Source of the DNA: Escherichia coli O127:H6 str. E2348/69
Lineage (GTDB): Bacteria; Pseudomonadota; Gammaproteobacteria; Enterobacterales; Enterobacteriaceae
Assembly: GCF_000026545.1 (NCBI RefSeq)
Contig: NC_011601.1
Reading direction: 5' to 3' (one strand)
DNA: 64,000 nucleotides
Below the pieces are notes generated by a model. That model was not told where the DNA came from. It saw nothing but the letters and a program-made list of their open reading frames with translations, and searched no databases. Numbering within the stretch: position 1 is the first letter of the stretch; every line of letters begins with the position of its first letter. The translations under genes were made by a program, and so were the position numbers. This document shows, one piece after another, positions 1,282 through 12,424 of this stretch.

Positions 1282-1300
1282 TTGTACCCAAGACTGTACC
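1282..1300 (+). repeat. attL core: 19-bp direct repeat TTGTACCCAAGACTGTACC (identical copy at 12406-12424)
   Basis: Exact 19/19 match at both ends of the integrase-bearing element. Confidence 0.75.
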
Positions 1301-1360
1301 TTTAATAATTTATCCAATTCATTTTGGGTACAAAATGATAGTCAATATTCAGGTGAAACT

Positions 1361-2620
1361 ATGGCAAAGCTGACAGATATCCAAATCAAGTCATGGATTA
1401 AGGCAGGAGAACGCTTCGAGGGGCGCTCTGACGGCAACGGGCTATACCTTCGCTATCGAGTGGGGGATAAAGTGCCTGTATGGCGTTTTCGATATCAGTT
1501 CGCTGGGAAATCACGGGTAATGCTTATTGGATCTTATAGCGAAATATCCCTTTCCAAAGCACGGGAAATAGCCAAGGAATTATCCGCACGTGTAGCCCTG
1601 GGCTTCGATGTCGCCGGGGAAAAGAAAGCGCGAAAAGCGGCTGCTATAGAAAAGATGGAGCGGGAGAAAAACGCGCTTCGCGTGTCAGAGCTAGCAACCG
1701 AGTATTTCGAACGGCAGATTTTGGGACGCTGGAAACATCCCGATCTTCTGCGCCGGAGAATCGATAAGGATATCAACCCACATATTGGCAACATGAAGAT
1801 AGAGGACGTAAAACCCCGTCATATTGATGCGATGCTACAGAGCGTTGTTGATCGTGGCGCTCCAACCGTAGCTAATGACGTTCTGCGCTGGACTAAACGC
1901 ATATTCGATTATGCTATCAAGCGTCATGCACTGGAATTAAACCCAGCTGGAGCATTTGATCTGTCAGACGCTGGCGGGCAGGAAAGTAGCCGTATGCGCT
2001 GGCTGACCCGTGAAGAACTTATACGTTTTTTCCAAGCTATGCGCACTGCAAAAGGATTCAGCCGCGAGAACGAGCTGACCATGAAGCTAATCCTCTGCCT
2101 GTGTTGTCGCAAAATGGAGCTGTGCGGTGCTCAGTGGGATGAATTCGACCTTGATGAAGCAGTGTGGCATCTACCAGCAGAACGCGTTAAAAACGGCGAC
2201 GCTATTGATATACCACTACCTCCACCTGCGGTTGGTTGGTTGAGAGAGCTTCGCACTATCGCGGGCAGTGGGAGTAAATGGGTTCTCCCCGCGCGGAAGA
2301 TGCAACACCGCATGATTCCCCACATTCAGGAAAGCACACTCCCAGTGGCGCTGGCAAAAGTACGCCGCGAAATGCCAGAAGTACCAAACTTCACAATTCA
2401 CGATTTCAGGCGTACCGCCCGCACCCATTTAGCGGCGTTGGGTGTCGATCCCGTAGTCGCAGAACGTTGCCTGAATCACCGCATTAAAGGCGTTGAGGGT
2501 ATCTACAACCGCCACCAGTACTTTGAAGAACGACGGGCAGCCCTGGAACTGTGGGCGGGGCTTCTGGTTTCGCTTGAACGAGGGGAAAACTACAATGTTA
2601 TTCCTTTATCTAAAATATAA
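1361..2620 (+). CDS. int: Tyrosine recombinase, P4-type integrase (419 aa)
   Basis: N-terminus MAKLTDIQIKSWIKAGERFEGRSDGNGLYLRYRVGDKVPVWRFRYQFAGK typical of P4-family arm-binding domain; C-terminal HDFRRT...HRIKGVEGIYNRHQY catalytic motif; start set at ATG 1361 with RBS aggtgaa. Confidence 0.9.
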   Translation: MAKLTDIQIKSWIKAGERFEGRSDGNGLYLRYRVGDKVPVWRFRYQFAGKSRVMLIGSYSEISLSKAREIAKELSARVALGFDVAGEKKARKAAAIEKMEREKNALRVSELATEYFERQILGRWKHPDLLRRRIDKDINPHIGNMKIEDVKPRHIDAMLQSVVDRGAPTVANDVLRWTKRIFDYAIKRHALELNPAGAFDLSDAGGQESSRMRWLTREELIRFFQAMRTAKGFSRENELTMKLILCLCCRKMELCGAQWDEFDLDEAVWHLPAERVKNGDAIDIPLPPPAVGWLRELRTIAGSGSKWVLPARKMQHRMIPHIQESTLPVALAKVRREMPEVPNFTIHDFRRTARTHLAALGVDPVVAERCLNHRIKGVEGIYNRHQYFEERRAALELWAGLLVSLERGENYNVIPLSKI

Positions 2621-2635
2621 AAGTTTTGTTTGAAG

Positions 2636-2740
2636 GTATTCACCCTATTCACCTTTTTAATTAACTTCATGATTTTAAATAATAAAAAAGGGTGAATACT
2701 TACAGTAAAACTAATCACCTTAGTATTCACCTGTTCACCT
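2636..2740. repeat. Cluster of five GGTGAAYA-type motifs (TATTCACC x3, GGTGAATA, TGTTCACC) downstream of int
   Basis: Read directly from sequence; a similar cluster lies at 12150-12265 at the other end of the element. Confidence 0.45.
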
Positions 2741-3123
2741 TCTAAAGCTGCTGTGGCTGCTCCCCTTGCCCGAAAACACGCCAGCCACCAGCGTTAAAAA
2801 AAACTACAAAAATCATCATCGTACAGATCTGTACGATGACGCCAGCACTCACCCTACAAAACAACCTAACTTATTGATTTCAAAAGTAGAGAAAATCTGC
2901 TTTATGCCACTAGCTCGCACCCGTCCCCAAAAAGAAAAAGCCCGCGCTGGAGACGCACGGGCTTTTGGGTACCGATAACCATGTTTGGAATCAACTCATT
3001 GAGTTCTGACCTCAATTTGCATGTTATCACAAGAAAAACACATTGTAATAATTGCAACAACGAATATCATCATTGCATATAATGAAACATAAATATCCGA
3101 TAGAACATACTGAGGTCTGACCG

Positions 3124-3675
3124 ATGCAAGATATTACAAACATCGCAGTGACTGGCGAAGATGGCGTGGTGACGTATGCCGACGGCAGTAAAGAGGAGTT
3201 CCAGTGCAGCGGAACCGTTGCGACCATCATTGCAAGTCTTGCAACGACACTCGAGAAAGAACGCAAAATGCGCATCGCCACCGGCGACCGCCTGCGCCGC
3301 ATGTACACCCGCGACAGTGATATGATTTCCCGCGGTTTGAATGGCACGTCTGCTACTTCCACGGCACCGACAGCAATGAATGCTGAGTTCATGCGTCTGG
3401 TACGTGCCGTAGCGCCGAAATACGATTCAGCACTGCCCGACGCCGACCCGCGCATCGTTGCGCTCGATGTGCTGCGCTACGCCCCTGCTGAGGCGTTCAG
3501 CGCCGTACACCCTACCCCAATGTCAGAAATCCAGCTGGATCAGGCTATCGATATACTCGAGCAGGTTGGCGACTACATGAAAGCAAACAATATCGCTCCG
3601 AAAATAATTTCTACAGGAGACGCAATCCGCAGCATCAATGCTGACAACGCCACCTTCTGGGGCAAAAAACACTAA
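3124..3675 (+). CDS. Hypothetical protein, 183 aa (first gene of cargo operon)
   Basis: ORF of 183 aa, same strand and closely spaced with three downstream ORFs; no motif recognised. Confidence 0.6.
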   Translation: MQDITNIAVTGEDGVVTYADGSKEEFQCSGTVATIIASLATTLEKERKMRIATGDRLRRMYTRDSDMISRGLNGTSATSTAPTAMNAEFMRLVRAVAPKYDSALPDADPRIVALDVLRYAPAEAFSAVHPTPMSEIQLDQAIDILEQVGDYMKANNIAPKIISTGDAIRSINADNATFWGKKH

Positions 3676-3688
3676 AGAGATATGAAGC

Positions 3689-3877
3689 ATGTCTATCTAT
3701 GACCCGAAATTAGCCGCAGGCAACCCACAGCGCGCCCACCGCCCAATGCTGACCCGTCAGGATCTTGAAACGGCAAAGGCACGCAATAACTTCGATCGCC
3801 AGAGTCGCAACCTGCAGCAACTCAACGAATCAAATGCACGGTTCTGGAGTGAACAGAATGAGAAAGCCAAACGTTAA
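3689..3877 (+). CDS. Hypothetical small protein, 62 aa
   Basis: Small ORF 14 bp after previous stop; basic/charged composition; no recognised domain. Confidence 0.4.
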   Translation: MSIYDPKLAAGNPQRAHRPMLTRQDLETAKARNNFDRQSRNLQQLNESNARFWSEQNEKAKR

Positions 3878-4034
3878 GCCGGTCCTGCTGTCCGCCGAGC
3901 AGATGCAGGCCATACGCAACATTCAGGAACGTGAACGCCAGCGCTCCAATCTCGGCGTCGCTCCCACCGTTCACCAGATTGCCCGCGGCCTCATGGCTAA
4001 GGCTCTGGCCTCACTGGCAAGCGAGGGCGCGTAA
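3858..4034 (+). CDS. Hypothetical small protein, 58 aa (start taken at ATG 3858)
   Basis: RBS ggag 9 nt upstream of ATG 3858; its stop overlaps the start of the next gene (TAATG). Confidence 0.4.
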   Translation: MRKPNVKPVLLSAEQMQAIRNIQERERQRSNLGVAPTVHQIARGLMAKALASLASEGA

Positions 4035-4765
4035 TGGGCGCCATTCACCAGATATATGAGCAGGAAATGTTCTATAACTGGATAGGCGATGGTAAACGAT
4101 GTGTAGCATTCCACGAAGCGGGCCATGCAGTAGCCGCATGGCTTATTCGCTTAGATATGCAGGTTATCGCCATTATGGATGAATCCGGCTACGTTGCTGG
4201 CGAACATGTACATGAAGCCCAGTGTTTGGGCGTTGTTAAACACGGCATAATCCACAGCCACGATCTCAGGCGTTTGCGGGAGAGTAAATCTGGTGTAGTT
4301 GGGCACGATGGCAAAGTTATCCCTTTCATACGCTACTACGCGGAAGGTATAAAGCGCGATGCAACAAAGGCCGCTTTTGTAGCCCTCGCTGGACCAGTAA
4401 GCGAAGCCATTTACGAAAATAACGAAATTTTCAATATAAAGTATTCACTCCCTCACCGCTATGACATGGCTAACGTAAATGACATGCTCGATTTAATATG
4501 TGCCACGGATAAGCGAATTAACAGGAAGTTAATGCTTTCTAAACTTGTTGAAAAGACCAAATTCCTCATGACTCAATACTGGCCGGAAGTAGGAAAAATA
4601 GCGCATTTGCTTGAGCGGGATAACATTGTTAATGGCCGCGATGTTAGCTCGCTAATCGGCCTCAACGTCATTGACCGGGCAACGCCATTTTTGGTATCTG
4701 ACTTGAGCAGTACATTTGCTCATCTCCCGTACTCGTCCCTGCCTCCGAATGAATTAGCAACTTGA
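4034..4765 (+). CDS. Standalone FtsH-like (M41-type) zinc metallopeptidase domain protein, 243 aa, no AAA+ module
   Basis: VAFHEAGHAVAAWL closely matches the FtsH zinc-binding HEAGH motif; later ALAGPVSEAIYEN resembles the FtsH third-ligand region; no Walker A/B present. Confidence 0.55.
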   Translation: MGAIHQIYEQEMFYNWIGDGKRCVAFHEAGHAVAAWLIRLDMQVIAIMDESGYVAGEHVHEAQCLGVVKHGIIHSHDLRRLRESKSGVVGHDGKVIPFIRYYAEGIKRDATKAAFVALAGPVSEAIYENNEIFNIKYSLPHRYDMANVNDMLDLICATDKRINRKLMLSKLVEKTKFLMTQYWPEVGKIAHLLERDNIVNGRDVSSLIGLNVIDRATPFLVSDLSSTFAHLPYSSLPPNELAT

Positions 4766-4812
4766 AGACAGTAAAGTAGCCATGCATTTAACACGCATGG
4801 CTATGTGAACAT

Positions 4813-6036
4813 TTAAGAATTAGAGCGCTTAGGCGATCGCGTAAATTGCACTAAAGCCCCTTTATGATCGTTAGCCTGCACATCACGATGCTCAACCAAC
4901 ATAGATTTTAATTTTGCCAGATGCACAACAGCAGCCTTCTTGCCAGTCAGGTACCCCTCGGGCAAACCAGCAATCATTTCCACATCAATAGCAGATAAAC
5001 CTGCGAATGCAGCAAGCCGTTCAACTGAAATGATTCCAGACGATGCCAGCAATTCAATAGTACGTTTCAACAAACGTGGTTTTTCAGGCTCACGATAATC
5101 ATCTCCCGGCTCTGATTTCGCTCCCCAACGTGCTGAACGACGCTTATAAAGATTTTGTTTCTCTTCTTCCGTAATAATATGCAGCACATGTAAACGCATG
5201 ATACTTGCCGCAACGGAAATACCATAGCGTTGTTTAATTAAAAGCAAGCTATCTAATGTTACCGGGGTCCTAATTTCTTCGGCAAATGTCTCAGCAGGAA
5301 GCAGCAGTGCTCCCGCAAATTTATGAGCCTGACTTTCCTTCAGCTTATAACGTTCGGCTTCGAGTTCGTTGCCAACATAGCGGTGAAGGATCAGATGACC
5401 AATTTCGTGAGCAAGGTCAAATCTGCTACGAAAAGCATTACCTTTATCTGAAGAGAGGAGAACAAAAGGAACACCTAAAGTCTCACTCCAGGCAGAAAGC
5501 CCTTCAATCTGCGCAACGCCTGTTTCTTCTCTAATAACGATAATACCATTACTCTCTGCGGCTAAAGCAAGATCCGGTATTTCCTTTGTACCAAGATTCC
5601 AAAGAGCACGGCACTCATTAGCAGCGTCTTCAATATCTGCATCACTAATTTCATCAATGTTTGTAAAGCTACGACGCGGTAGTTTTAGCTCCGGCAGATC
5701 TACAAACTCAGTCAGCTTAGTAACTAACTCATTAGCCCAATGGATTCGAGTTTCTAACATTGCTCGTGCAGCTACATGAGCTGATGCATTGCTTCTGAAC
5801 AGAGGCTTTGACATCCCCTTCAACAGAGGGCGCGTAAACCATTCAGGTGTAACATTTACGACAGTGGCCAGACGTTCTAAAGCCTCAGACTCTGGAGCCT
5901 GTTGACCGGAACGCCATTTGCTAATGGTTGCTGGTGATACACCCACCATAGTAGCTAATTGAGTTTGTGATAGCCGCCGGGCGGCTAGTACCTGTGCTAA
6001 CCTGCCCGGTTGAAATTCGGCGACGCCTCGGCTCAT
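4813..6036 (-). CDS. XRE-family HTH fused to ImmA/IrrE (M78-type) metallopeptidase, with ~150-aa C-terminal extension (407 aa)
   Basis: N-terminal LSQTQLATMVGVSPATISKWRSG helix-turn-helix; FDLAHEIGHLILHRY HExxH motif typical of ImmA/IrrE peptidases. Confidence 0.75.
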   Translation of the reverse strand: MSRGVAEFQPGRLAQVLAARRLSQTQLATMVGVSPATISKWRSGQQAPESEALERLATVVNVTPEWFTRPLLKGMSKPLFRSNASAHVAARAMLETRIHWANELVTKLTEFVDLPELKLPRRSFTNIDEISDADIEDAANECRALWNLGTKEIPDLALAAESNGIIVIREETGVAQIEGLSAWSETLGVPFVLLSSDKGNAFRSRFDLAHEIGHLILHRYVGNELEAERYKLKESQAHKFAGALLLPAETFAEEIRTPVTLDSLLLIKQRYGISVAASIMRLHVLHIITEEEKQNLYKRRSARWGAKSEPGDDYREPEKPRLLKRTIELLASSGIISVERLAAFAGLSAIDVEMIAGLPEGYLTGKKAAVVHLAKLKSMLVEHRDVQANDHKGALVQFTRSPKRSNS

Positions 6037-6680
6037 ACATTATCTTCCTCGGTTCCATCTTTTCTGATAATGCCCCTTTTGAGCCCAGGGAATGCATTAT
6101 CTTCTTGGGACGGAACTACATCATATCGGGTTAAAAAAAGTTCAAGTGGCTCATGAAAAACCCAGCGCTTCCCATCAGAACTTGGTACAACAAGCTCTAT
6201 AGACATCGGAGCTTCAGGCTGAATCTGCAACGAACCGGAAAAACGGCATACTACGAACAGTGTAGCTTTTGGCACATCAGAACCATCGGAGAATAAATCC
6301 GGTTGCACCATTTTTTCCACAAACACGTTCTCAGAAATGAGTTCTTGCTTACGTTTGCTACGGAATAATCTCTTCCACTGGTTATCATTGTAGCTTTCAC
6401 GAACAATCGTGAATATACCACTATGGCCTTCTACAATACGGTTACCACGCAGCTTTCCAGGATTACAACCGTTGGCCTCAAACACCTCATAAATAGTTTC
6501 ATTCAGGTTTAAATGACGATCATAACCAAGCGCGGTCGATCTGTGATCTAGCTTCTTCTTTTGAGCATAATCGTAAGAACGCTTTGATGCCGCGTAAATC
6601 GCGTCAGAAAGGGCCATGAAGAGTTGTTTTGAAACATTCTGAACGATGAGATCTGCCACTTTGGATTTTTTCACGACCAT
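6033..6680 (-). CDS. Hypothetical protein, 215 aa, translationally coupled upstream partner of the HTH-ImmA gene
   Basis: ORF of 215 aa; its stop overlaps the downstream start (ATGA at 6033-6036); no recognised motif. Confidence 0.6.
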   Translation of the reverse strand: MVVKKSKVADLIVQNVSKQLFMALSDAIYAASKRSYDYAQKKKLDHRSTALGYDRHLNLNETIYEVFEANGCNPGKLRGNRIVEGHSGIFTIVRESYNDNQWKRLFRSKRKQELISENVFVEKMVQPDLFSDGSDVPKATLFVVCRFSGSLQIQPEAPMSIELVVPSSDGKRWVFHEPLELFLTRYDVVPSQEDNAFPGLKRGIIRKDGTEEDNV

Positions 6681-6683
6681 TTC

Positions 6684-6702
6684 CTATCACTGTCACTGAT
6701 AG
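6684..6702. promoter_or_regulatory. Inverted repeat CTATCA-N7-TGATAG overlapping the RBS/start region of the 215-aa gene (candidate operator)
   Basis: Read directly from sequence immediately adjacent to the start codon at 6680. Confidence 0.25.
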
Positions 6703-7209
6703 CCGTGATTTTATATCAGTATTTTTTCGTGTGTCCATAACGCAATCAATTATTTTTTCCTTTGTCAGCAAGAATTATATAAAAAGCACTATCATGACAG
6801 GATTTGGGCCACTAACCTTTCACAGACTCTTGAAGTCCTAGAAAAAAGCAATGGCACAAGGTGTCCTTGCCGGGAGAAAAATCATCTGGCTACCAGCAAC
6901 CTTATAGATTCCAGATCAACGTAATATCAAAGTAAAACGTCCATTTCCGGTACCATATTTGGTCATTACGACGGGGGAAACTTATACCCACTGCTGCCCC
7001 ATCGTCAGCGCCGACAGGGACCTATGCCGCAAGGTATAAGGCAAAATTGGCATTTTCGCTATTCCCCCTGCCCGTATTTTTTGGCTTACTGGAATTTCTC
7101 TATCTAACACAATGAACTTGAGGCTATTCCGACAGGGAGAAAAGCGATCTACGCCTGACCGCCTGCCTCAGCAATCATCCAGGCAAGTACGTGTGTAAGG
7201 CTAACGCGA

Positions 7210-7890
7210 ATGAGTGATTTTTATTCCCCTCTACCAAGCTATGATCTTGTCCGGGCAGCGGAGATGCTGACTGATAAGGGGGCAAATTGTACCGGTAACG
7301 ATTTATTGGAACTATGGAACCAAGGCGTTATCGAGTTGTGTTTTTCTCTGCCGGACTACATTGCTTGTGAAGATGTTAATTTTCCCGGGCATGGTCACAG
7401 CATTTTGTTATCCGTGGATCCGATTAGCTTCAACCTTTTCTGGCTAAATGTTGATTACCCACCGAACTTAAATGCTAACTTTTCTGTGAAAGAATATGGC
7501 TCAGATAGTGAATTCCATGAGCAGTCCCTATGGATACCAACAGAACCGCACTACAACACTCACCATGATAACGGGGAAGGGCTTTGCGAAGCGTTAAGGA
7601 ATACTTATGGCCGGGAAAATTTACGAATACCAGGTGTCGAATTGCAAAAGGTTTGGCGCTTTTTGATCGGTCAGCCTTATGAAAAAAAGCCAACGCCTGA
7701 GCGTATCACCGCTAAGCAATGCCGCTTTATCGTCGCATTACTCAGATCGTATAACCTGACTGACGATGATTTTAAGGGGAGCATTAGGGACCTGAGAATT
7801 AAGATATCTAACCGGATCCCTTCAATCGGTGATCCTGAAATCGATGATAATACCCTTACTGACTGGCTGAAGAAGGGAGGGGTTCGGTAG
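7210..7890 (+). CDS. Hypothetical protein, 226 aa
   Basis: Isolated ORF upstream of alpA, preceded by ~530-bp AT-rich intergenic region; no recognised motif. Confidence 0.55.
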   Translation: MSDFYSPLPSYDLVRAAEMLTDKGANCTGNDLLELWNQGVIELCFSLPDYIACEDVNFPGHGHSILLSVDPISFNLFWLNVDYPPNLNANFSVKEYGSDSEFHEQSLWIPTEPHYNTHHDNGEGLCEALRNTYGRENLRIPGVELQKVWRFLIGQPYEKKPTPERITAKQCRFIVALLRSYNLTDDDFKGSIRDLRIKISNRIPSIGDPEIDDNTLTDWLKKGGVR

Positions 7891-7992
7891 CTGAGTTTTC
7901 ATAACTCCGATGAGTTTTCAATAACTCCCCCACCCGTAACCACCTACCCCGTAGCCTTGCGATTACCTTCTCACTCAATAGCAGGTAATCGC

Positions 7993-8205
7993 ATGAAATC
8001 GCAAACTTTCACCTTTCCTACCAATGGCAACGCACGAGCCAAACAAGTGGCGCACTATCTTGGAGTGCATATCAGCACCGTATGGCGCTATGCAAAACGT
8101 CCTGATTTTCCAAAACCCCACCAGTTAACCGACGGCGTGACCGTCTTTGACGCCGCAGCTATTCGCCAATGGAACAAGCAAAAAACCGGGGGTGAGAATG
8201 CTTAA
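7993..8205 (+). CDS. alpA: AlpA-family phage transcriptional regulator / excisionase-like DNA-binding protein (70 aa)
   Basis: KQVAHYLGVHISTVWRYAKRPDFPKPHQLTDGVTVFDAAAIRQW is the AlpA-type HTH pattern; start set at ATG 7993. Confidence 0.8.
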   Translation: MKSQTFTFPTNGNARAKQVAHYLGVHISTVWRYAKRPDFPKPHQLTDGVTVFDAAAIRQWNKQKTGGENA

Positions 8206-8259
8206 CGCGACCGTGAGCACACCCTGCACGACAGCCGTTCGATCTCCATTGTTGGCGGG

Positions 8260-8454
8260 TCAGGCTTTCGGCTCAATACCCAGCCGCTGGAGTTCTTTGC
8301 GCCCCAAGGTTTTCATCCAATTAGCTAAACTCATACCTGCATCTCGTGCGGCGGCCTCGAATTGCTCTTTCAATTCTGGGGCGATCCTCACTTGGAAAGC
8401 TGGTGCCTTTCCCCTGCCTTTGGGCTGTTTATCACGCTGTATTACTGTTGACAT
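8260..8454 (-). CDS. Small ribbon-helix-helix-like protein (64 aa), opposite strand to the replication operon
   Basis: FQVRIAPELKEQFEAAARDAGMSLANWMKTLGRK resembles RHH (Arc/CopG-type) strand-helix-helix; start chosen at internal Met. Confidence 0.4.
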   Translation of the reverse strand: MSTVIQRDKQPKGRGKAPAFQVRIAPELKEQFEAAARDAGMSLANWMKTLGRKELQRLGIEPKA

Positions 8455-8588
8455 GTATGTACCTATTAAACTAAGATTCAAATCAATAGGTACGCACCTT
8501 AACATGTTAAGGTCAGAAAAGACAACGCCCCGTAGTGCTCGCAACACATACGGGGCGTCTAACCAACAACGTTACGGAGACTAACGCT

Positions 8589-8789
8589 ATGGCTAAGCCG
8601 CAGTGTACCCAAACTCACCCCAAATATCAGTATCGTTTTATGGCGCTCGATCGCGCTGACCGCCAGGCAAAACCCTGCAAAATCATTGTTGAGGCCACCA
8701 GCGAGCATGAAGCACGTAAGGTGTTGGCACCTCACTACATCCTGTCACTGTCCGCCGTTTTGCCAGTTCAGGAGGTGAGCCATGTTTAA
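8589..8789 (+). CDS. Hypothetical small protein (66 aa), satellite replication-module operon
   Basis: RBS ggaga upstream of ATG 8589; overlaps next ORF. Confidence 0.5.
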   Translation: MAKPQCTQTHPKYQYRFMALDRADRQAKPCKIIVEATSEHEARKVLAPHYILSLSAVLPVQEVSHV

Positions 8790-8976
8790 TGTCATTGTCA
8801 CGGTCACCTATCACTTTTCGGGAACGATCCGTCGTTTTGCTATTCCGGAACGTTTCAATAATCGTGAGCTCGCAGAGAAAGCGGCGCAGCAGTTAACCCA
8901 TACCAGCTATCTGGATGATGGAGTGAGCAGAATTGTGACCCACGCGGCGGAAGTAGTGGAGGTGCGCCATGTATGA
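8782..8976 (+). CDS. Hypothetical small protein (64 aa)
   Basis: Strong RBS caggaggtg; overlapping start/stop with neighbours. Confidence 0.55.
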   Translation: MFNVIVTVTYHFSGTIRRFAIPERFNNRELAEKAAQQLTHTSYLDDGVSRIVTHAAEVVEVRHV

Positions 8977-9157
8977 CGCCTACCTGAACCCAAAGGACGC
9001 ACTCCGTCCGATCGCCGTTGCACTCGAGGCTGCGCAGTTTATCGCGCTTGACCCGGAGAATACCGATTTAGCCCATGAGCTGATCGCCTGGGCACTTGAA
9101 ACAGCCGCGCGTGCCTCAGCTGCGCAACGTAACACCCCGGAGGTGGACAATGCTTAA
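8969..9157 (+). CDS. Hypothetical small protein (62 aa)
   Basis: RBS ggaggtg upstream; translationally coupled. Confidence 0.5.
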   Translation: MYDAYLNPKDALRPIAVALEAAQFIALDPENTDLAHELIAWALETAARASAAQRNTPEVDNA

Positions 9158-9458
9158 TCTCAATACATGGAATCTTTTCACGCTGCCGCTGAACGGTGGC
9201 GCAGCTGAGACAGCGCCGGACGATCTGCGTCTGCTGGCCGCTGTGGGGGACGAGGCTCGCAACAACTACCTGCGCGGTGTAAGCGCCATCGGCAATCTGA
9301 TCTTCTGGGCATGTGATAACCCCAACTACACCGACCATCAAGCTGACCTGCCAGCGCTGGGCGCATTCCTGAAACATACCGCTGATATGGCGCGCGCTGC
9401 CGAATTCATGGCAGGACATCTGGACTCACTGGCTGACGGCAAAGAGGGAGGCAAATAA
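9150..9458 (+). CDS. Hypothetical protein (102 aa)
   Basis: RBS ggaggtg before ATG 9150; stop overlaps next start. Confidence 0.55.
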   Translation: MLNLNTWNLFTLPLNGGAAETAPDDLRLLAAVGDEARNNYLRGVSAIGNLIFWACDNPNYTDHQADLPALGAFLKHTADMARAAEFMAGHLDSLADGKEGGK

Positions 9459-9679
9459 TGCCACGCAAACATCGCTCATCAAGCAACCTGATCAAATTAA
9501 TGGAACGCCAGAAAGGTATAGGGCGCGACGATATCCAGATCGCAGATAATCGCCCTACATTCATGCCGTACGAGCCGAACGGAACCTACGCTACAAACCG
9601 CCATACCCGCCGTATGCTACGCAAGCTCCACGGCATCCAGGCAAAAAGAATGTGTGATCTGAAAGGAGGTCAGAAATGA
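9458..9679 (+). CDS. Hypothetical small basic protein (73 aa)
   Basis: RBS gagggagg; stop overlaps primase start (ATGA). Confidence 0.5.
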   Translation: MPRKHRSSSNLIKLMERQKGIGRDDIQIADNRPTFMPYEPNGTYATNRHTRRMLRKLHGIQAKRMCDLKGGQK

Positions 9680-12090
9680 GTGGATTCGATCACCTGATGG
9701 AGCAGGGGCAGAAACGCACCCCTGCTCGTTTTACTGCAAATAGCTTTTCTGACCTGTGCAACGCTATTCTATCGCATCGTGTGCAAATTTCCATCACACA
9801 GGAAATGACGGATGAAGAACGGCGCAAAGAAAAGCAGAAACTGTACTGGTTCTCGGCAACTACCCAGCAGGACGGGCAGCGACGTAAACCCGAAAACATG
9901 GCACCGTGTGCTTTCGGTATGCTGGACATTGACGGCAGCACTCCCGGTGCAATCACAGCACTTGTACAGGTGTTCCGGCGATACTCAATGCTGGTGTACC
10001 AGACGGCCAGCTATACGACGGATGAACCTCGTCTGCGTATTGTGTGCGAGCTTTCCCGAGCGGTTGAATCTGACTACCGCCGAGCGACAGGCGAATCCAT
10101 AGAAACTTTGTTGATGCAGGAGGCTGGATTCTCATTCGCCAGCCTGGCGGATAAGAAAGCACGCTGGGAGAACGGCAGCGATTATGTTGTCTTTGACCGC
10201 AATGTATACGGCGCTCAAAGCTATTGCTACTGTCCACACACTGGAGCGAAAGCCCAGAATTACGCGGGCGCGGTAATCGACGTAGGGGCGTTACCGGAAC
10301 CCGCCCAGCCACCAGCGAAGGCGGCCAAAAGCAAGGCAAAGAAACAGCGCCAGCGTGACGCCGCGGCGGTAATAGATGCTGATTTTGACGATCTGAGCGC
10401 CGGACCGGATAACTTCCTTATCGCCGACCTGCGCAGCGCACTCTGGTTTCCCTCCATGCTGCAAAAGGCATGGGACAATGGGGCGTGGATTGAGCAGGGC
10501 TACCGCCTTGCATCTCTCAAAGGCACCGATTTTGAGGACGACGCGCGGCAACTGTGGGTCGAGTGGTCATTGACCGCAGCGGATGGCTGGCCTGATGAAG
10601 AACTTGATGAAGTCGCGGCACAACGCTGGAATGGTCTCGCCCCTGACAAAACCAGCTATAAAGCTATTTTTACTGATGCTCAGGCGCAGGGGTGGAATAA
10701 TCCGGGCAAATGGCGAGCAAAGGCCGCGTACATTGAGAAAATGGCCCCCAGCACACGCGGTGAACTGCTGGCGCAATATTACGGCAACGTATGCCTGAAA
10801 GCTGATGGCAACATGGTTTATCACTATACCGGGCAGGTGTGGGAGCACATCGCCGATGCCGAGTTGCGCCGCCAGCTTTCGCAGATTTTCAAAGATAACG
10901 GGGTCCCCTTTACACCGTACGAGGTTAAAAGCGCGATTGAGGCTATGGGAATGCTTCTGCCTTTAATGGGAGAAACTCCTCGTAACCTGATTGGCTTTGC
11001 CAACGGCGTTTATGATCTCGAGGCGCAGCGATTCCGCCCCCACTGCCCAGACGATTGGCTGACCAGCCATAACGGCGTTGAATACACGCAGCCGGTTAAA
11101 GGCGAAACCCTGAAAAACAATGCCCCAAACTTCTGGCGCTGGCTGCATCATTCCGCAGGGGGCGACTTCGACAAAATGGAGAGAATCAAAGCCGCTCTGT
11201 ATATGGTGCTGGCAAACCGCTACGACTGGCAACTGTTCATCGAGGTTACCGGTGCTGGTGGCAGTGGTAAAAGCGTGTTCACGGGTATTGCACGTATGCT
11301 GACGGGCGAACTACACGCCACCAGCGGCACAATGGAGGACATGGACACCGCGCGCGAACGCGCATCTTTTGTCGGCAAAAGCCTGATCACCCTACCCGAC
11401 CAAGCAACATATACGGGTTCCGGGCCGGGTATCAAGGCTATAACGGGCGGCGACGTGGTAAGGATCGACCCAAAGCACGAAAAGCCATTCCATACGGTTA
11501 TTCGCGCCGTTGTCATCGCAACAAACAACGAACCTATGCGTTTCACCGAACGACAAGGCGGGATATCGCGGCGCCGGGTTATTTTCCCGTTTAACCATGA
11601 AGTGCCGGAGGCGGAACGTGATCCCCATCTGCTCGATAAAATTAAAGCCGAACTGCCGGTAATCGTCCGTGGTCTGCTGATTGACTTCGAACAGCCAGGC
11701 AAAGCCAAATCGCTACTTATCGCGCAGCGTGATTCAGCGGAAGCGCTGCAGGTGAAGAACGATAACGACCCGATGTATGGCTTTTGCTCTTACCTGCTAG
11801 GTTTGCCGAATCCCGAGGGCATGTACATGGGCGATGGGCGCATGGCGCGAGAGCCACGCATCTACCTCTATCATGCTTATCTGGCCTATCTGGAAGCCTA
11901 CGGTTATCAGAGAACCCCCACCCTACCGAAGTTCAGCGGAGATTTACGGGACACGCTCAAAGCCTTTGGTATTACTCTGGACAGTAAAAAGAGTAAAAAG
12001 GGCAAAAGATATAACGTCAATTTGTCTGACAGGGCACAAGAATGGCTGGGAGAAGACGAACTCTCAGCTGTGCCCGACACATTGCAGTAA
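9676..12090 (+). CDS. P4 alpha-like bifunctional DNA primase/helicase (804 aa)
   Basis: Walker A GAGGSGKS in the C-terminal half; size and architecture typical of P4-alpha-type replication proteins; RBS aaggagg. Confidence 0.85.
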   Translation: MSGFDHLMEQGQKRTPARFTANSFSDLCNAILSHRVQISITQEMTDEERRKEKQKLYWFSATTQQDGQRRKPENMAPCAFGMLDIDGSTPGAITALVQVFRRYSMLVYQTASYTTDEPRLRIVCELSRAVESDYRRATGESIETLLMQEAGFSFASLADKKARWENGSDYVVFDRNVYGAQSYCYCPHTGAKAQNYAGAVIDVGALPEPAQPPAKAAKSKAKKQRQRDAAAVIDADFDDLSAGPDNFLIADLRSALWFPSMLQKAWDNGAWIEQGYRLASLKGTDFEDDARQLWVEWSLTAADGWPDEELDEVAAQRWNGLAPDKTSYKAIFTDAQAQGWNNPGKWRAKAAYIEKMAPSTRGELLAQYYGNVCLKADGNMVYHYTGQVWEHIADAELRRQLSQIFKDNGVPFTPYEVKSAIEAMGMLLPLMGETPRNLIGFANGVYDLEAQRFRPHCPDDWLTSHNGVEYTQPVKGETLKNNAPNFWRWLHHSAGGDFDKMERIKAALYMVLANRYDWQLFIEVTGAGGSGKSVFTGIARMLTGELHATSGTMEDMDTARERASFVGKSLITLPDQATYTGSGPGIKAITGGDVVRIDPKHEKPFHTVIRAVVIATNNEPMRFTERQGGISRRRVIFPFNHEVPEAERDPHLLDKIKAELPVIVRGLLIDFEQPGKAKSLLIAQRDSAEALQVKNDNDPMYGFCSYLLGLPNPEGMYMGDGRMAREPRIYLYHAYLAYLEAYGYQRTPTLPKFSGDLRDTLKAFGITLDSKKSKKGKRYNVNLSDRAQEWLGEDELSAVPDTLQ

Positions 12091-12109
12091 CTTGTAAAAA
12101 ATCACCAAG

Positions 12110-12132
12110 AACCCCGTAAATCGGGGTTTTTG
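12110..12132 (+). terminator. Rho-independent terminator after the primase gene
   Basis: Hairpin aaccccg-taaa-tcggggtt followed by ttttt. Confidence 0.65.
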
Positions 12133-12149
12133 TCTATTTATTAGTCTGA

Positions 12150-12265
12150 AAGGGTGAACAGGTGCGCATACCTTAACAAAGCTGTTCACTCTAATAATTT
12201 TCTTTAATATCAGTACACTACCCGCAATAAGTGAACAGATGGACGGGGTGAACACTTCACACCTA
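12150..12265. repeat. Cluster of GGTGAACA-type motifs (four to five copies, both orientations) near the attR end
   Basis: Read from sequence; mirrors the motif cluster at 2636-2740. Confidence 0.4.
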
Positions 12266-12405
12266 TAGCGCGAAATATTTTAATATTTGCAGTTGAATTG
12301 CAATCCTTGAAAACAGAAACGCGTAGCAAAACGTAGAGTGCTGAAAAAATTTTGTTGGGGAGCAGTTCAAACTGCATGAGCAATTTTCAAGCACTCCTCT
12401 TTGTC

Positions 12406-12424
12406 TTGTACCCAAGACTGTACC
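12406..12424 (+). repeat. attR core: second copy of 19-bp direct repeat TTGTACCCAAGACTGTACC
   Basis: Exact match to 1282-1300. Confidence 0.75.

Follow-up and report, generated by a model that had tools for sequence, protein, structure and literature searches.

Proteases of the FtsH type (MEROPS family M41), such as FtsH, YME1 and AFG3L2, are textbook ATP-driven machines of about 640 residues, in which the protease domain, forming the base of a hexamer, is accompanied by an AAA+ unfoldase and a transmembrane anchor. HEXXH proteases of other kinds are found on mobile elements: Lit, from prophage e14, is a metalloprotease of this kind that brings about abortive infection by cleaving EF-Tu upon a phage cue, and proteases of the ImmA, IrrE and CapP type cleave the DNA-binding protein that is their partner. 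Here we analyse a 64,000-nucleotide stretch of the chromosome of Escherichia coli O127:H6 str. E2348/69 (NC_011601.1; the whole stretch is called the window), in which a phage satellite of about 11.1 kb carries a gene at 4034..4765 (+) for a 243-residue protein, designated mini-M41 (UniProt B7UM55, "Peptidase M41 family protein"). Judged from family profiles and a predicted structure, mini-M41 adopts the M41 fold and is truly homologous to the protease domain of FtsH, but is devoid of the ATPase motor.

The initial annotation, made from the DNA letters, had proposed a standalone FtsH-like zinc peptidase domain lacking any AAA+ module on a phage satellite, starting from a near-exact match to the HEAGH motif of FtsH, and this proposal is supported both by the family profile and by the AlphaFold model. 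The motif VAFHEAGHAVAAWL is indeed present in the 243-residue product, the HEXXH signature corresponding to H27-E28-A-G-H31. In an alignment of 48 relatives E28, G30, H31, G120 and D144 are invariant, and H27 is kept in all but one sequence, which displays an asparagine. D144 aligns, in the family profile alignment, with the conserved aspartate of the "gaenD" motif of Thermus thermophilus FtsH, which we take, from the crystal structures of FtsH, to be the third zinc ligand; zinc binding and catalysis are putatively assigned to H27, E28, H31 and D144. An AxxGxxxEAIY segment had originally been read as resembling the third zinc-ligand region, but this segment (AGPVSEAIY) corresponds instead to the "GGRxAEE" region of FtsH. 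Profile searches gave a divided answer. As a single sequence the protein remained below threshold for Pfam M41 (independent E-value 0.0015 over 24 residues, 21-44) and reached 15.5 bits in the NCBIfam FtsH model against a cut-off of 600, while phmmer aligned it with human AFG3L2 across residues 20-210 (E 3e-4). The profile of the 48-sequence family, on the other hand, retrieved 19 matches in the PDB, all of them M41 proteins (FtsH, YME1, AFG3L2 or FtsHi), with a best E-value of 2.6e-18, and the Pfam M41 model matched 21 of the 48 members at E ≤ 1e-3. Likewise, structure prediction with a shallow 15-sequence alignment yielded a pLDDT of 35, and a good model (pLDDT 84.4, pTM 0.83) with an FtsH-type protease fold was obtained after distant relatives were added. 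In a Foldseek comparison of this model with the PDB, all 50 matches listed were FtsH-type chains (FtsH, AFG3L2, YME1, FtsHi), with a TM-score of about 0.5 when normalised to the query and of 0.59 when normalised to the isolated protease domain 2di4, and with an identity to FtsH of only about 12-15% in the structural alignments.

The resemblance to FtsH, YME1 and AFG3L2 thus comprises a homologous protease domain, an HEXXH motif on the first long helix, the aligned aspartate, an "AGxxAE" segment and the fold. The absence of Walker motifs and of an AAA+ module, as first claimed, was borne out: Pfam detected no AAA domain, and the sole GK dipeptide (G93-K94) is, by inspection of the sequence, unfit as a Walker A motif. 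No transmembrane segment and no signal peptide were predicted either, so neither the AAA+ module nor the N-terminal membrane anchor of an FtsH-type holoenzyme is found in the protein. Unlike FtsH, which is a housekeeping enzyme, mini-M41 and its close relatives (223-243 residues) are encoded by mobile satellites and would be incapable of processive ATP-dependent proteolysis. Motor-less M41 domains that keep their catalytic residues imply another mode of action, likely a docking-dependent cleavage of a specific target.

Since the fold is the same as that of the FtsH domain at the base of the hexamer, we may ask whether mini-M41 is a decoy, catalytically irrelevant, that joins or blocks the host FtsH ring and alters substrate turnover, for instance that of lambda CII. 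We regard this as very improbable. Selection for catalysis is indicated by the retention of the catalytic residues in 48 diverged relatives; from the inactive FtsHi proteins the motif is gone; and at so low an identity to FtsH conserved FtsH interfaces are unlikely. With the putative catalytic residues so nearly completely conserved, an active protease is more likely than a decoy. A natural form of the peptidase without the catalytic motif does occur: in P0024, a 226-residue E. coli protein seen in 66 contigs, the N-terminal segment of about 45 residues including HEAGH is replaced by an unrelated sequence.

A protease-only FtsH homologue had been thought unusual, and this view could not be sustained. 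Among 1.84 billion representative proteins 46 relatives were found, none of which is a full-length FtsH, and about 35 of these are distant stand-alone proteins, mostly of 150-280 residues. AFDB50 lists dozens of "Peptidase M41 domain-containing proteins" of 156-313 residues, from sources that include Pseudomonas, Klebsiella, Rhizobium and Rhodopseudomonas, the best match in BFVD is a 214-residue phage protein of the same kind (A0A6J5RJ76), and "peptidase M41 family protein" is the name under which RefSeq lists some of the copies. The assignment to family M41 is therefore already in public annotation, and the protease-only architecture is not rare. In the searchable literature, queries combining M41 or FtsH-like with defence, satellite or phage-inducible chromosomal island (PICI), and queries with the RefSeq accessions, returned nothing relevant. 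The short M41 proteins share with mini-M41 the restriction to the protease domain and the same conserved motifs; the Enterobacterales satellite clade differs from the others in an extra beta-rich insertion (residues ~45-100) and in having partners of its own, namely a small protein designated p58, a lipoprotein and a secreted protein of 112 residues, all described below. The close family (at least 60% identity) is narrow and sporadic, being found in Enterobacterales only and in 53 of 5426 complete E. coli genomes; tblastn detected no member in 50,697 phage records or 72,556 plasmids, and none was found in 100,044 species-representative genomes (GTDB). One mini-M41 clade is thereby associated with Enterobacterales phage satellites, among them that of a tractable prototype strain of enteropathogenic E. 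coli (EPEC).

The gene encoding mini-M41 is the last of four co-oriented open reading frames (ORFs) at 3124-4765, all on the + strand and all present as coding sequences in RefSeq, as initially described: p183 (183 codons, 3124..3675), p62 (62 codons, 3689..3877), p58 (58 codons with an ATG start, 3858..4034), which encodes a small basic protein, and the peptidase gene itself. The overlap between p62 and p58 is of 20 nt, and the stop codon of p58 and the start codon of the peptidase gene have one base in common (TAATG), confirming the overlap noted at the outset. Ratios of non-synonymous to synonymous substitution (dN/dS, Nei-Gojobori), calculated against copies 41-89% identical at the protein level, were 0.09-0.11 for p183, 0.23-0.28 for p62, 0.09-0.14 for p58 and 0.24-0.26 for the peptidase. 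On the basis of these ratios all four ORFs, the small overlapping ones included, are genuine protein-coding genes under purifying selection.

Nevertheless, the four genes do not form the single cargo operon that had been proposed: p183 and p62 occur without the peptidase, p58 and the peptidase form a pair of their own, and the 3' end is clipped. Across related islands the block is composite and its parts occur separately. Homologues of p183 (42-49% identity) in Klebsiella, Enterobacter and other genera are always located about 220 bp 3' of a P4-type primase gene, and in the Klebsiella and Enterobacter elements the genes behind p183 are variable (Dit-like, Apex-like and others) and include no peptidase. 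A p62-like ORF often comes directly after p183. From this genomic context p183 and p62 are best described as leader genes of the post-primase late zone of the satellites, that is, part of the satellite backbone, "late zone" being a term of the HES/PICI paper (bioRxiv 10.1101/2022.07.18.500453). In the window p183 is found between the integrase gene (int) and alpA, unlike its post-primase place in related satellites, Gram-negative PICIs among them. Searches of Pfam, PHROGs, NCBIfam, PADLOC and PDB profiles assigned no domain to p183, and none of the domain searches supported its RefSeq name, "XRE family transcriptional regulator". We also considered whether p183 is the PICI packaging protein Rpp, a protein of 144-153 residues with a solved structure (PMC6739421), and rejected it, as the p183 profile matches no PDB chain even though a structure of Rpp exists.

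The position of the block had also suggested that its genes are divergent forms of the P4 capsid-redirection functions Sid, Delta and Psu. Only a positional analogy with P4 speaks for this, and we consider its probability close to negligible: p183, p62 and p58 gave no significant PHROG, Pfam, NCBIfam or PDB match, the fourth protein is an M41 peptidase, and neither p183 nor the peptidase had a tblastn match in the 50,697 phage records, a set that presumably includes P4. The comparison of p183 with Psu, Sid and Delta (PHROGs and the same phage records) thus showed no similarity.

Some further observations concern the leader genes and the elements that carry them. The C-terminal ends of p183 (3640-3675) and p62 (3830-3877) display a common motif, N-A-x-F-W-[GS], whose tryptophan is invariant in 21 p183 homologues and which is also found in p62-like ORFs of Klebsiella elements (loci L006, L008, L009 and L012); this motif may be a common docking or recognition tag. 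In three Enterobacter and metagenome contigs (L015-L017) an integrase gene, a second recombinase gene, a DUF4222 gene, a primase gene and p183 lie between the prophage genes Sheath_initiator and Baseplate_J, and these satellites appear to be "helper-embedded" in the tail genes of a contractile-tailed phage. Short tandem repeats, which in translation read as "LNQH/LNQQ" or "LVQ", are found just 3' of primase genes (L008:6493-6705, L023:4838-4918, L026:5163-5258 and L029:4978-5265). They are probably iterons of the satellite replication origin, in which case p183 or mini-M41 would begin right after the origin.

The pair formed by p58 and mini-M41 has a distribution of its own. About 30 E. coli genomes, of the PC6 and M9682 types, contain of the block only the peptidase and a 57-residue homologue of p58 (p57); the pair lies downstream of the primase gene, and in front of it are a terminator, a 17-bp inverted repeat and a -10 box. 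The coupling of the p58 stop to the peptidase start is kept in the E. coli and Salmonella copies. As far as gene arrangement can tell, p58 and mini-M41 are a separate, translationally coupled accessory pair, which also occurs alone with its own putative promoter. An arrangement of p183, a p62-like ORF and the M41 gene without p58 exists as well. The p58 protein shows a strand-helix-helix pattern that is ribbon-helix-helix (RHH)-like by inspection only: neither Pfam nor PDB profiles support this fold, and hhalign comparisons of p58 with Arc, CopG, ParD and Mnt and with an RHH protein of locus L032 were not significant.

A small gene coming first, with its stop overlapping the start of a larger one, is reminiscent of type II toxin-antitoxin (TA) systems, and the pair could be an abortive-infection module in which p58 is an RHH antitoxin and autorepressor and mini-M41 a proteolytic toxin freed when p58 is degraded during phage infection. 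The pair does stand as a unit by itself, with a promoter palindrome, an Antitox_RHH gene (PF20605) is located 28 bp upstream of a distant mini-M41 in L032, the distribution is sporadic, and the cargo hotspot lies beside Rosmer, itself a TA-like defence system. However, neither p58 nor any small upstream ORF accompanies the mini-M41s of L012, L022, L023, L026 and L029 (Dickeya, Serratia, Yersinia and Klebsiella elements), which weakens this interpretation because an unneutralised toxin should not be tolerated; a 197-codon gene separates p58 from the peptidase in L037, and an RHH signature was not detected in p58. A toxin-antitoxin function is accordingly rated as decidedly unlikely. Small DNA-binding-like proteins other than p58 are also found in this position, such as a conserved 72-residue protein, winged-helix-like by inspection, upstream of mini-M41 in L010 and L024.

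The block as a whole is mobile. It follows int at yicC in E. coli and Salmonella, comes after primase, ProQ and PerC genes at tRNA-Gly in strain EC02, and is found beside TerS-like and structural genes in larger elements, so that it has been seen in at least three satellite backbones and insertion sites. Between E2348/69 and EC02 the p183, p62 and p58 proteins are 97-100% identical and the peptidases only 90% (dS 0.23), a drop in identity that indicates recombination at the junction of p58 and the peptidase gene. Taken together, these comparisons depict the block as accessory, sporadic and recombining cargo which moves between backbones.

Recombination has also clipped the 3' end of the peptidase gene in E2348/69. 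In other strains (DEC5B-type and EC02-type E. coli) the peptidase has 223 residues and is followed by a gene for a lipoprotein of 350-352 residues with the lipobox LTGC. In the window, homology to the 223-residue allele stops at a breakpoint at 4693-4695, four codons before the native stop, and from there a non-native C-terminal tail (4693..4765, +) of about 23-24 residues reads into foreign sequence up to the rmrA terminator, so that the protein ends in …PFLVSDLSSTFAHLPYSSLPPNELAT where the native one ends in …PFLLAE. The tail is predicted to be disordered, with a pLDDT below 50 for the last 14 residues (230-243). No homologue of the lipoprotein was found within the 64-kb window. What follows instead, convergent with the block, is a complete Rosmer defence system (4813..6680, -), consisting of RmrA (4813-6036, 407 aa, with a helix-turn-helix (HTH) domain and an M78 peptidase domain; PADLOC E 3.5e-125) and RmrT (6033-6680, 215 aa; E 8.1e-16), and a terminator-like hairpin (4777..4803, -) lies between the convergent peptidase and rmrA genes. 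In DEC5B a different Rosmer variant is found beyond the lipoprotein gene. The alignments point to one recombination event, by which "lipoprotein + Rosmer variant A" was swapped for "Rosmer variant B" and the peptidase gene was clipped. The clipped allele is intact and common to seven genomes of several lineages, and it differs from the DEC5B allele by only four non-synonymous and two synonymous changes, too few to judge decay. The E2348/69 copy is a clipped version, and the module lends itself better to study in the islands of DEC5B type or of Salmonella.

The lipoprotein is one of two exported proteins that recur next to mini-M41. Its gene lies directly 3' of the peptidase gene in E. coli, Dickeya, Serratia and Yersinia, the peptidases of the latter three being 24-29% identical to that of the window and the lipoproteins 38-59% identical, and in L006-L008 and L012 it lies in the same element, about 6 kb upstream of mini-M41. 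The members of this lipoprotein family of Enterobacterales satellites (352-374 residues; L002:11179-12237, L022:7795-8853, L023:5687-6811, L026:6001-7125 and L029:6001-7062) share an invariant EILFSHWAGMARVY at the C-terminus, a central coiled-coil and cysteine pairs in each half, and contain no domain known to Pfam, PADLOC, NCBIfam or PHROGs. Proteins of 355-359 residues encoded after p183 in Klebsiella were compared with this family and are not the lipoprotein. The second protein, of 112-116 residues (L018:7729-8067, L009:3807-4145, L038:5606-5956 and L039:5603-5953), is unrelated to the first; it carries a signal peptide, two conserved cysteines and a C-terminal F-x-W, and its copies are 39-40% identical. 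The corresponding gene follows mini-M41 in Salmonella, L009 and L038/L039, often in a translationally coupled manner with an overlap of 1-4 nt, and the peptidases concerned are only 25-87% identical to that of the window. Across about 16 element types nearly every mini-M41 has at least one of two neighbours, a small DNA-binding-like protein encoded upstream or an exported partner, and those that have neither lie in short or edge-of-contig contexts; with a sample this small, of elements related by descent, the neighbour pattern is a lead and not a result.

We may hypothesize from this pattern that mini-M41 and the exported protein downstream of it constitute an effector/immunity-like or envelope-directed two-gene system, in which case the E2348/69 copy, orphaned, would retain little function or none. 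The persistence of the lipoprotein behind so diverged peptidases in four genera, its presence elsewhere in the same element where it is not adjacent, the coupling of an unrelated signal-peptide protein in the same place and the deletion of the partner gene in the window are all consistent with it. Mini-M41, however, has neither signal peptide nor membrane segment, which would place the two proteins in different compartments; p57 and the M41 gene are maintained without an exported partner in about 30 E. coli genomes, at a dN/dS of about 0.2-0.27; the window allele is intact in its seven genomes; and the synteny may be inherited rather than functional. On balance this arrangement seems quite improbable as an explanation of the module, slightly more so than a toxin-antitoxin pair.

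The reading to which we lean, tentatively and at less than even probability, is that mini-M41 is a conflict or regulatory protease and p58 its autoregulator and possible inhibitor or substrate. Mini-M41 would be an active, ATP-independent endopeptidase and, as it has no unfoldase or ATPase, it would be a specific rather than a general one, cutting only accessible segments exposed in one or a few proteins, with a host, helper-phage or competitor-phage protein as the candidate class of target. The satellite would use it as other mobile elements use their HEXXH proteases (Lit and the ImmA/IrrE/CapP group), and p58 would be a small DNA-binding autoregulator, possibly also an inhibitor or substrate of the peptidase. 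The analogy is drawn from two kinds of system. Like ImmA/ImmR, IrrE/DdrO, CapP/CapH and RmrA, the locus has a small HEXXH peptidase beside a small DNA-binding-type protein on a mobile element, and the p58-mini-M41 pair is likewise self-contained and has a promoter palindrome; it differs from ImmA/ImmR-type pairs in that the peptidase belongs to M41 and not M78, and in that the partner is not an XRE HTH protein, has a fold that is RHH-like by inspection only and is missing in several lineages. Like Lit, mini-M41 is a stand-alone zinc metalloprotease of a defective prophage or satellite, presumably target-gated and for that reason tolerated without an antitoxin, but there is no sequence similarity between the two and PADLOC gives no Lit match. 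The cargo hotspot, in which mini-M41 adjoins the known defence system Rosmer, is in keeping with a role in conflict.

Several points weigh against this proposal. PADLOC-DB v2 returned no family at E ≤ 1 for p183, p62, p58, mini-M41, the lipoprotein or a 94-residue neighbour, and no search supports the RHH fold of p58. Furthermore, p58 cannot be an obligatory partner, since several mini-M41s (Dickeya, Serratia, Yersinia) have no small upstream gene. The recurrent exported protein downstream is left unexplained by a conflict or regulatory protease, the shared neighbourhood in related satellites may reflect common descent and not functional coupling, and the E2348/69 allele, with its foreign tail, could be impaired.

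The distribution of mini-M41 also suggests a role in the life cycle of the satellite itself. It is confined to primase-bearing, satellite-like elements, where it occupies the post-primase zone and travels with the late-zone leader p183, often just 5' of TerS-like genes (DUF5681, DUF2280) and near morphogenesis-type genes, so that it might be a late-zone component rather than a defence gene, cleaving a helper or satellite protein (a regulator, a scaffold or capsid protein, a terminase) and thereby aiding induction or packaging. Yet only some of the otherwise similar satellites carry it, which does not fit a core function, no packaging genes are nearby in E2348/69 and in the PC6-type elements, and no metallopeptidase is known to us to serve in satellite piracy. 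We consider interference of this kind unlikely, less so than a toxin-antitoxin pair. Returning to the conflict or regulatory protease, a broader version of it may be proposed, which we hold to be doubtful: the mini-M41s may constitute an unrecognised family of ATP-independent satellite conflict proteases, gated by a small DNA-binding partner and/or paired with a dedicated exported protein in an effector/immunity-like or sensor/effector manner, which by cleaving a single specific protein of host or phage would give abortive infection, exclusion or manipulation of the helper. If mini-M41 does serve in defence, exclusion or helper manipulation, it would represent a new protease family in the conflict between phage, satellite and host, and would suggest a function for dozens of entries now labelled only "Peptidase M41 domain-containing protein"; if it is inert, the locus still illustrates how recombination assembles and clips the cargo of satellites.

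The satellite that carries the block (~1282-12424, about 11.1 kb) is of the Gram-negative PICI/P4 type and is integrated beside yicC, between this gene and dinD in the RefSeq annotation of the EPEC strain. yicC is an integration site of reference PICIs (bioRxiv 10.1101/2022.07.18.500453). The features of such satellites are all present, namely int, alpA, a P4-type primase gene, a size of about 11 kb and flanking repeats. The putative attL (1282..1300) and attR (12406..12424) sites are the two copies of a perfect 19-bp direct repeat, TTGTACCCAAGACTGTACC. The tyrosine integrase gene (1361..2620, +; RefSeq) matches the PHROG integrase profile with an E-value of 3.7e-66, the P4-type primase gene (9676-12090) is assigned by RefSeq and by a profile match, and annotation together with profile matches also identifies an AlpA-like HTH protein and an Icd-like protein. 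An int-alpA RNA motif (RF02996; 7117..7184, +) scores 39.4 bits in Rfam, above the gathering score of 35.8. The element thus resembles Gram-negative PICI and P4-like satellites in these genes, the RNA motif, the repeats, the yicC site and a hotspot for defence cargo, and differs from them in that the block lacks any detectable homologue of Sid, Delta, Psu or Rpp. From the name of its family we take the int-alpA RNA to sit normally between int and alpA; here it is 4.5 kb away from int instead of directly after it, and 2620-7117 is therefore likely to be cargo inserted in the integration zone, comprising the four-gene block and, convergent with it, the Rosmer system.

Homology to the EC02 copy, which belongs to a different satellite, begins at about 2935, and this left edge of the mobile block is marked by a G+C-rich hairpin with A- and T-runs on both sides (2936..2966), terminator-like in both directions, the same hairpin being present at L003:9002-9032. 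Upstream of p183 a promoter-like region (3017..3090, +) contains a repeated TTGCATnTnAT motif, identified by consensus matches only. Elsewhere in the island, a 226-codon ORF between the int-alpA RNA and alpA (7210-7890, +) matched nothing in any library, and its counterpart in DEC5B is an unrelated ORF of 272 codons; an ORF for an Arc-like repressor (8260-8454, -) lies antisense between alpA and the Icd-like gene. Further along the window, at 38278-38372 (+), is the gene for the selenocysteine tRNA (selC), which we take to be the classical insertion site of the locus of enterocyte effacement (LEE) pathogenicity island in EPEC. About 2.5 kb upstream of the window start, the E2348/69 chromosome harbors, between slmA and pyrE, an inserted gene for a "reverse transcriptase family protein" (L001:6905-7864), a spot at which DEC5B has no such gene, and this may be a retron-type defence gene.

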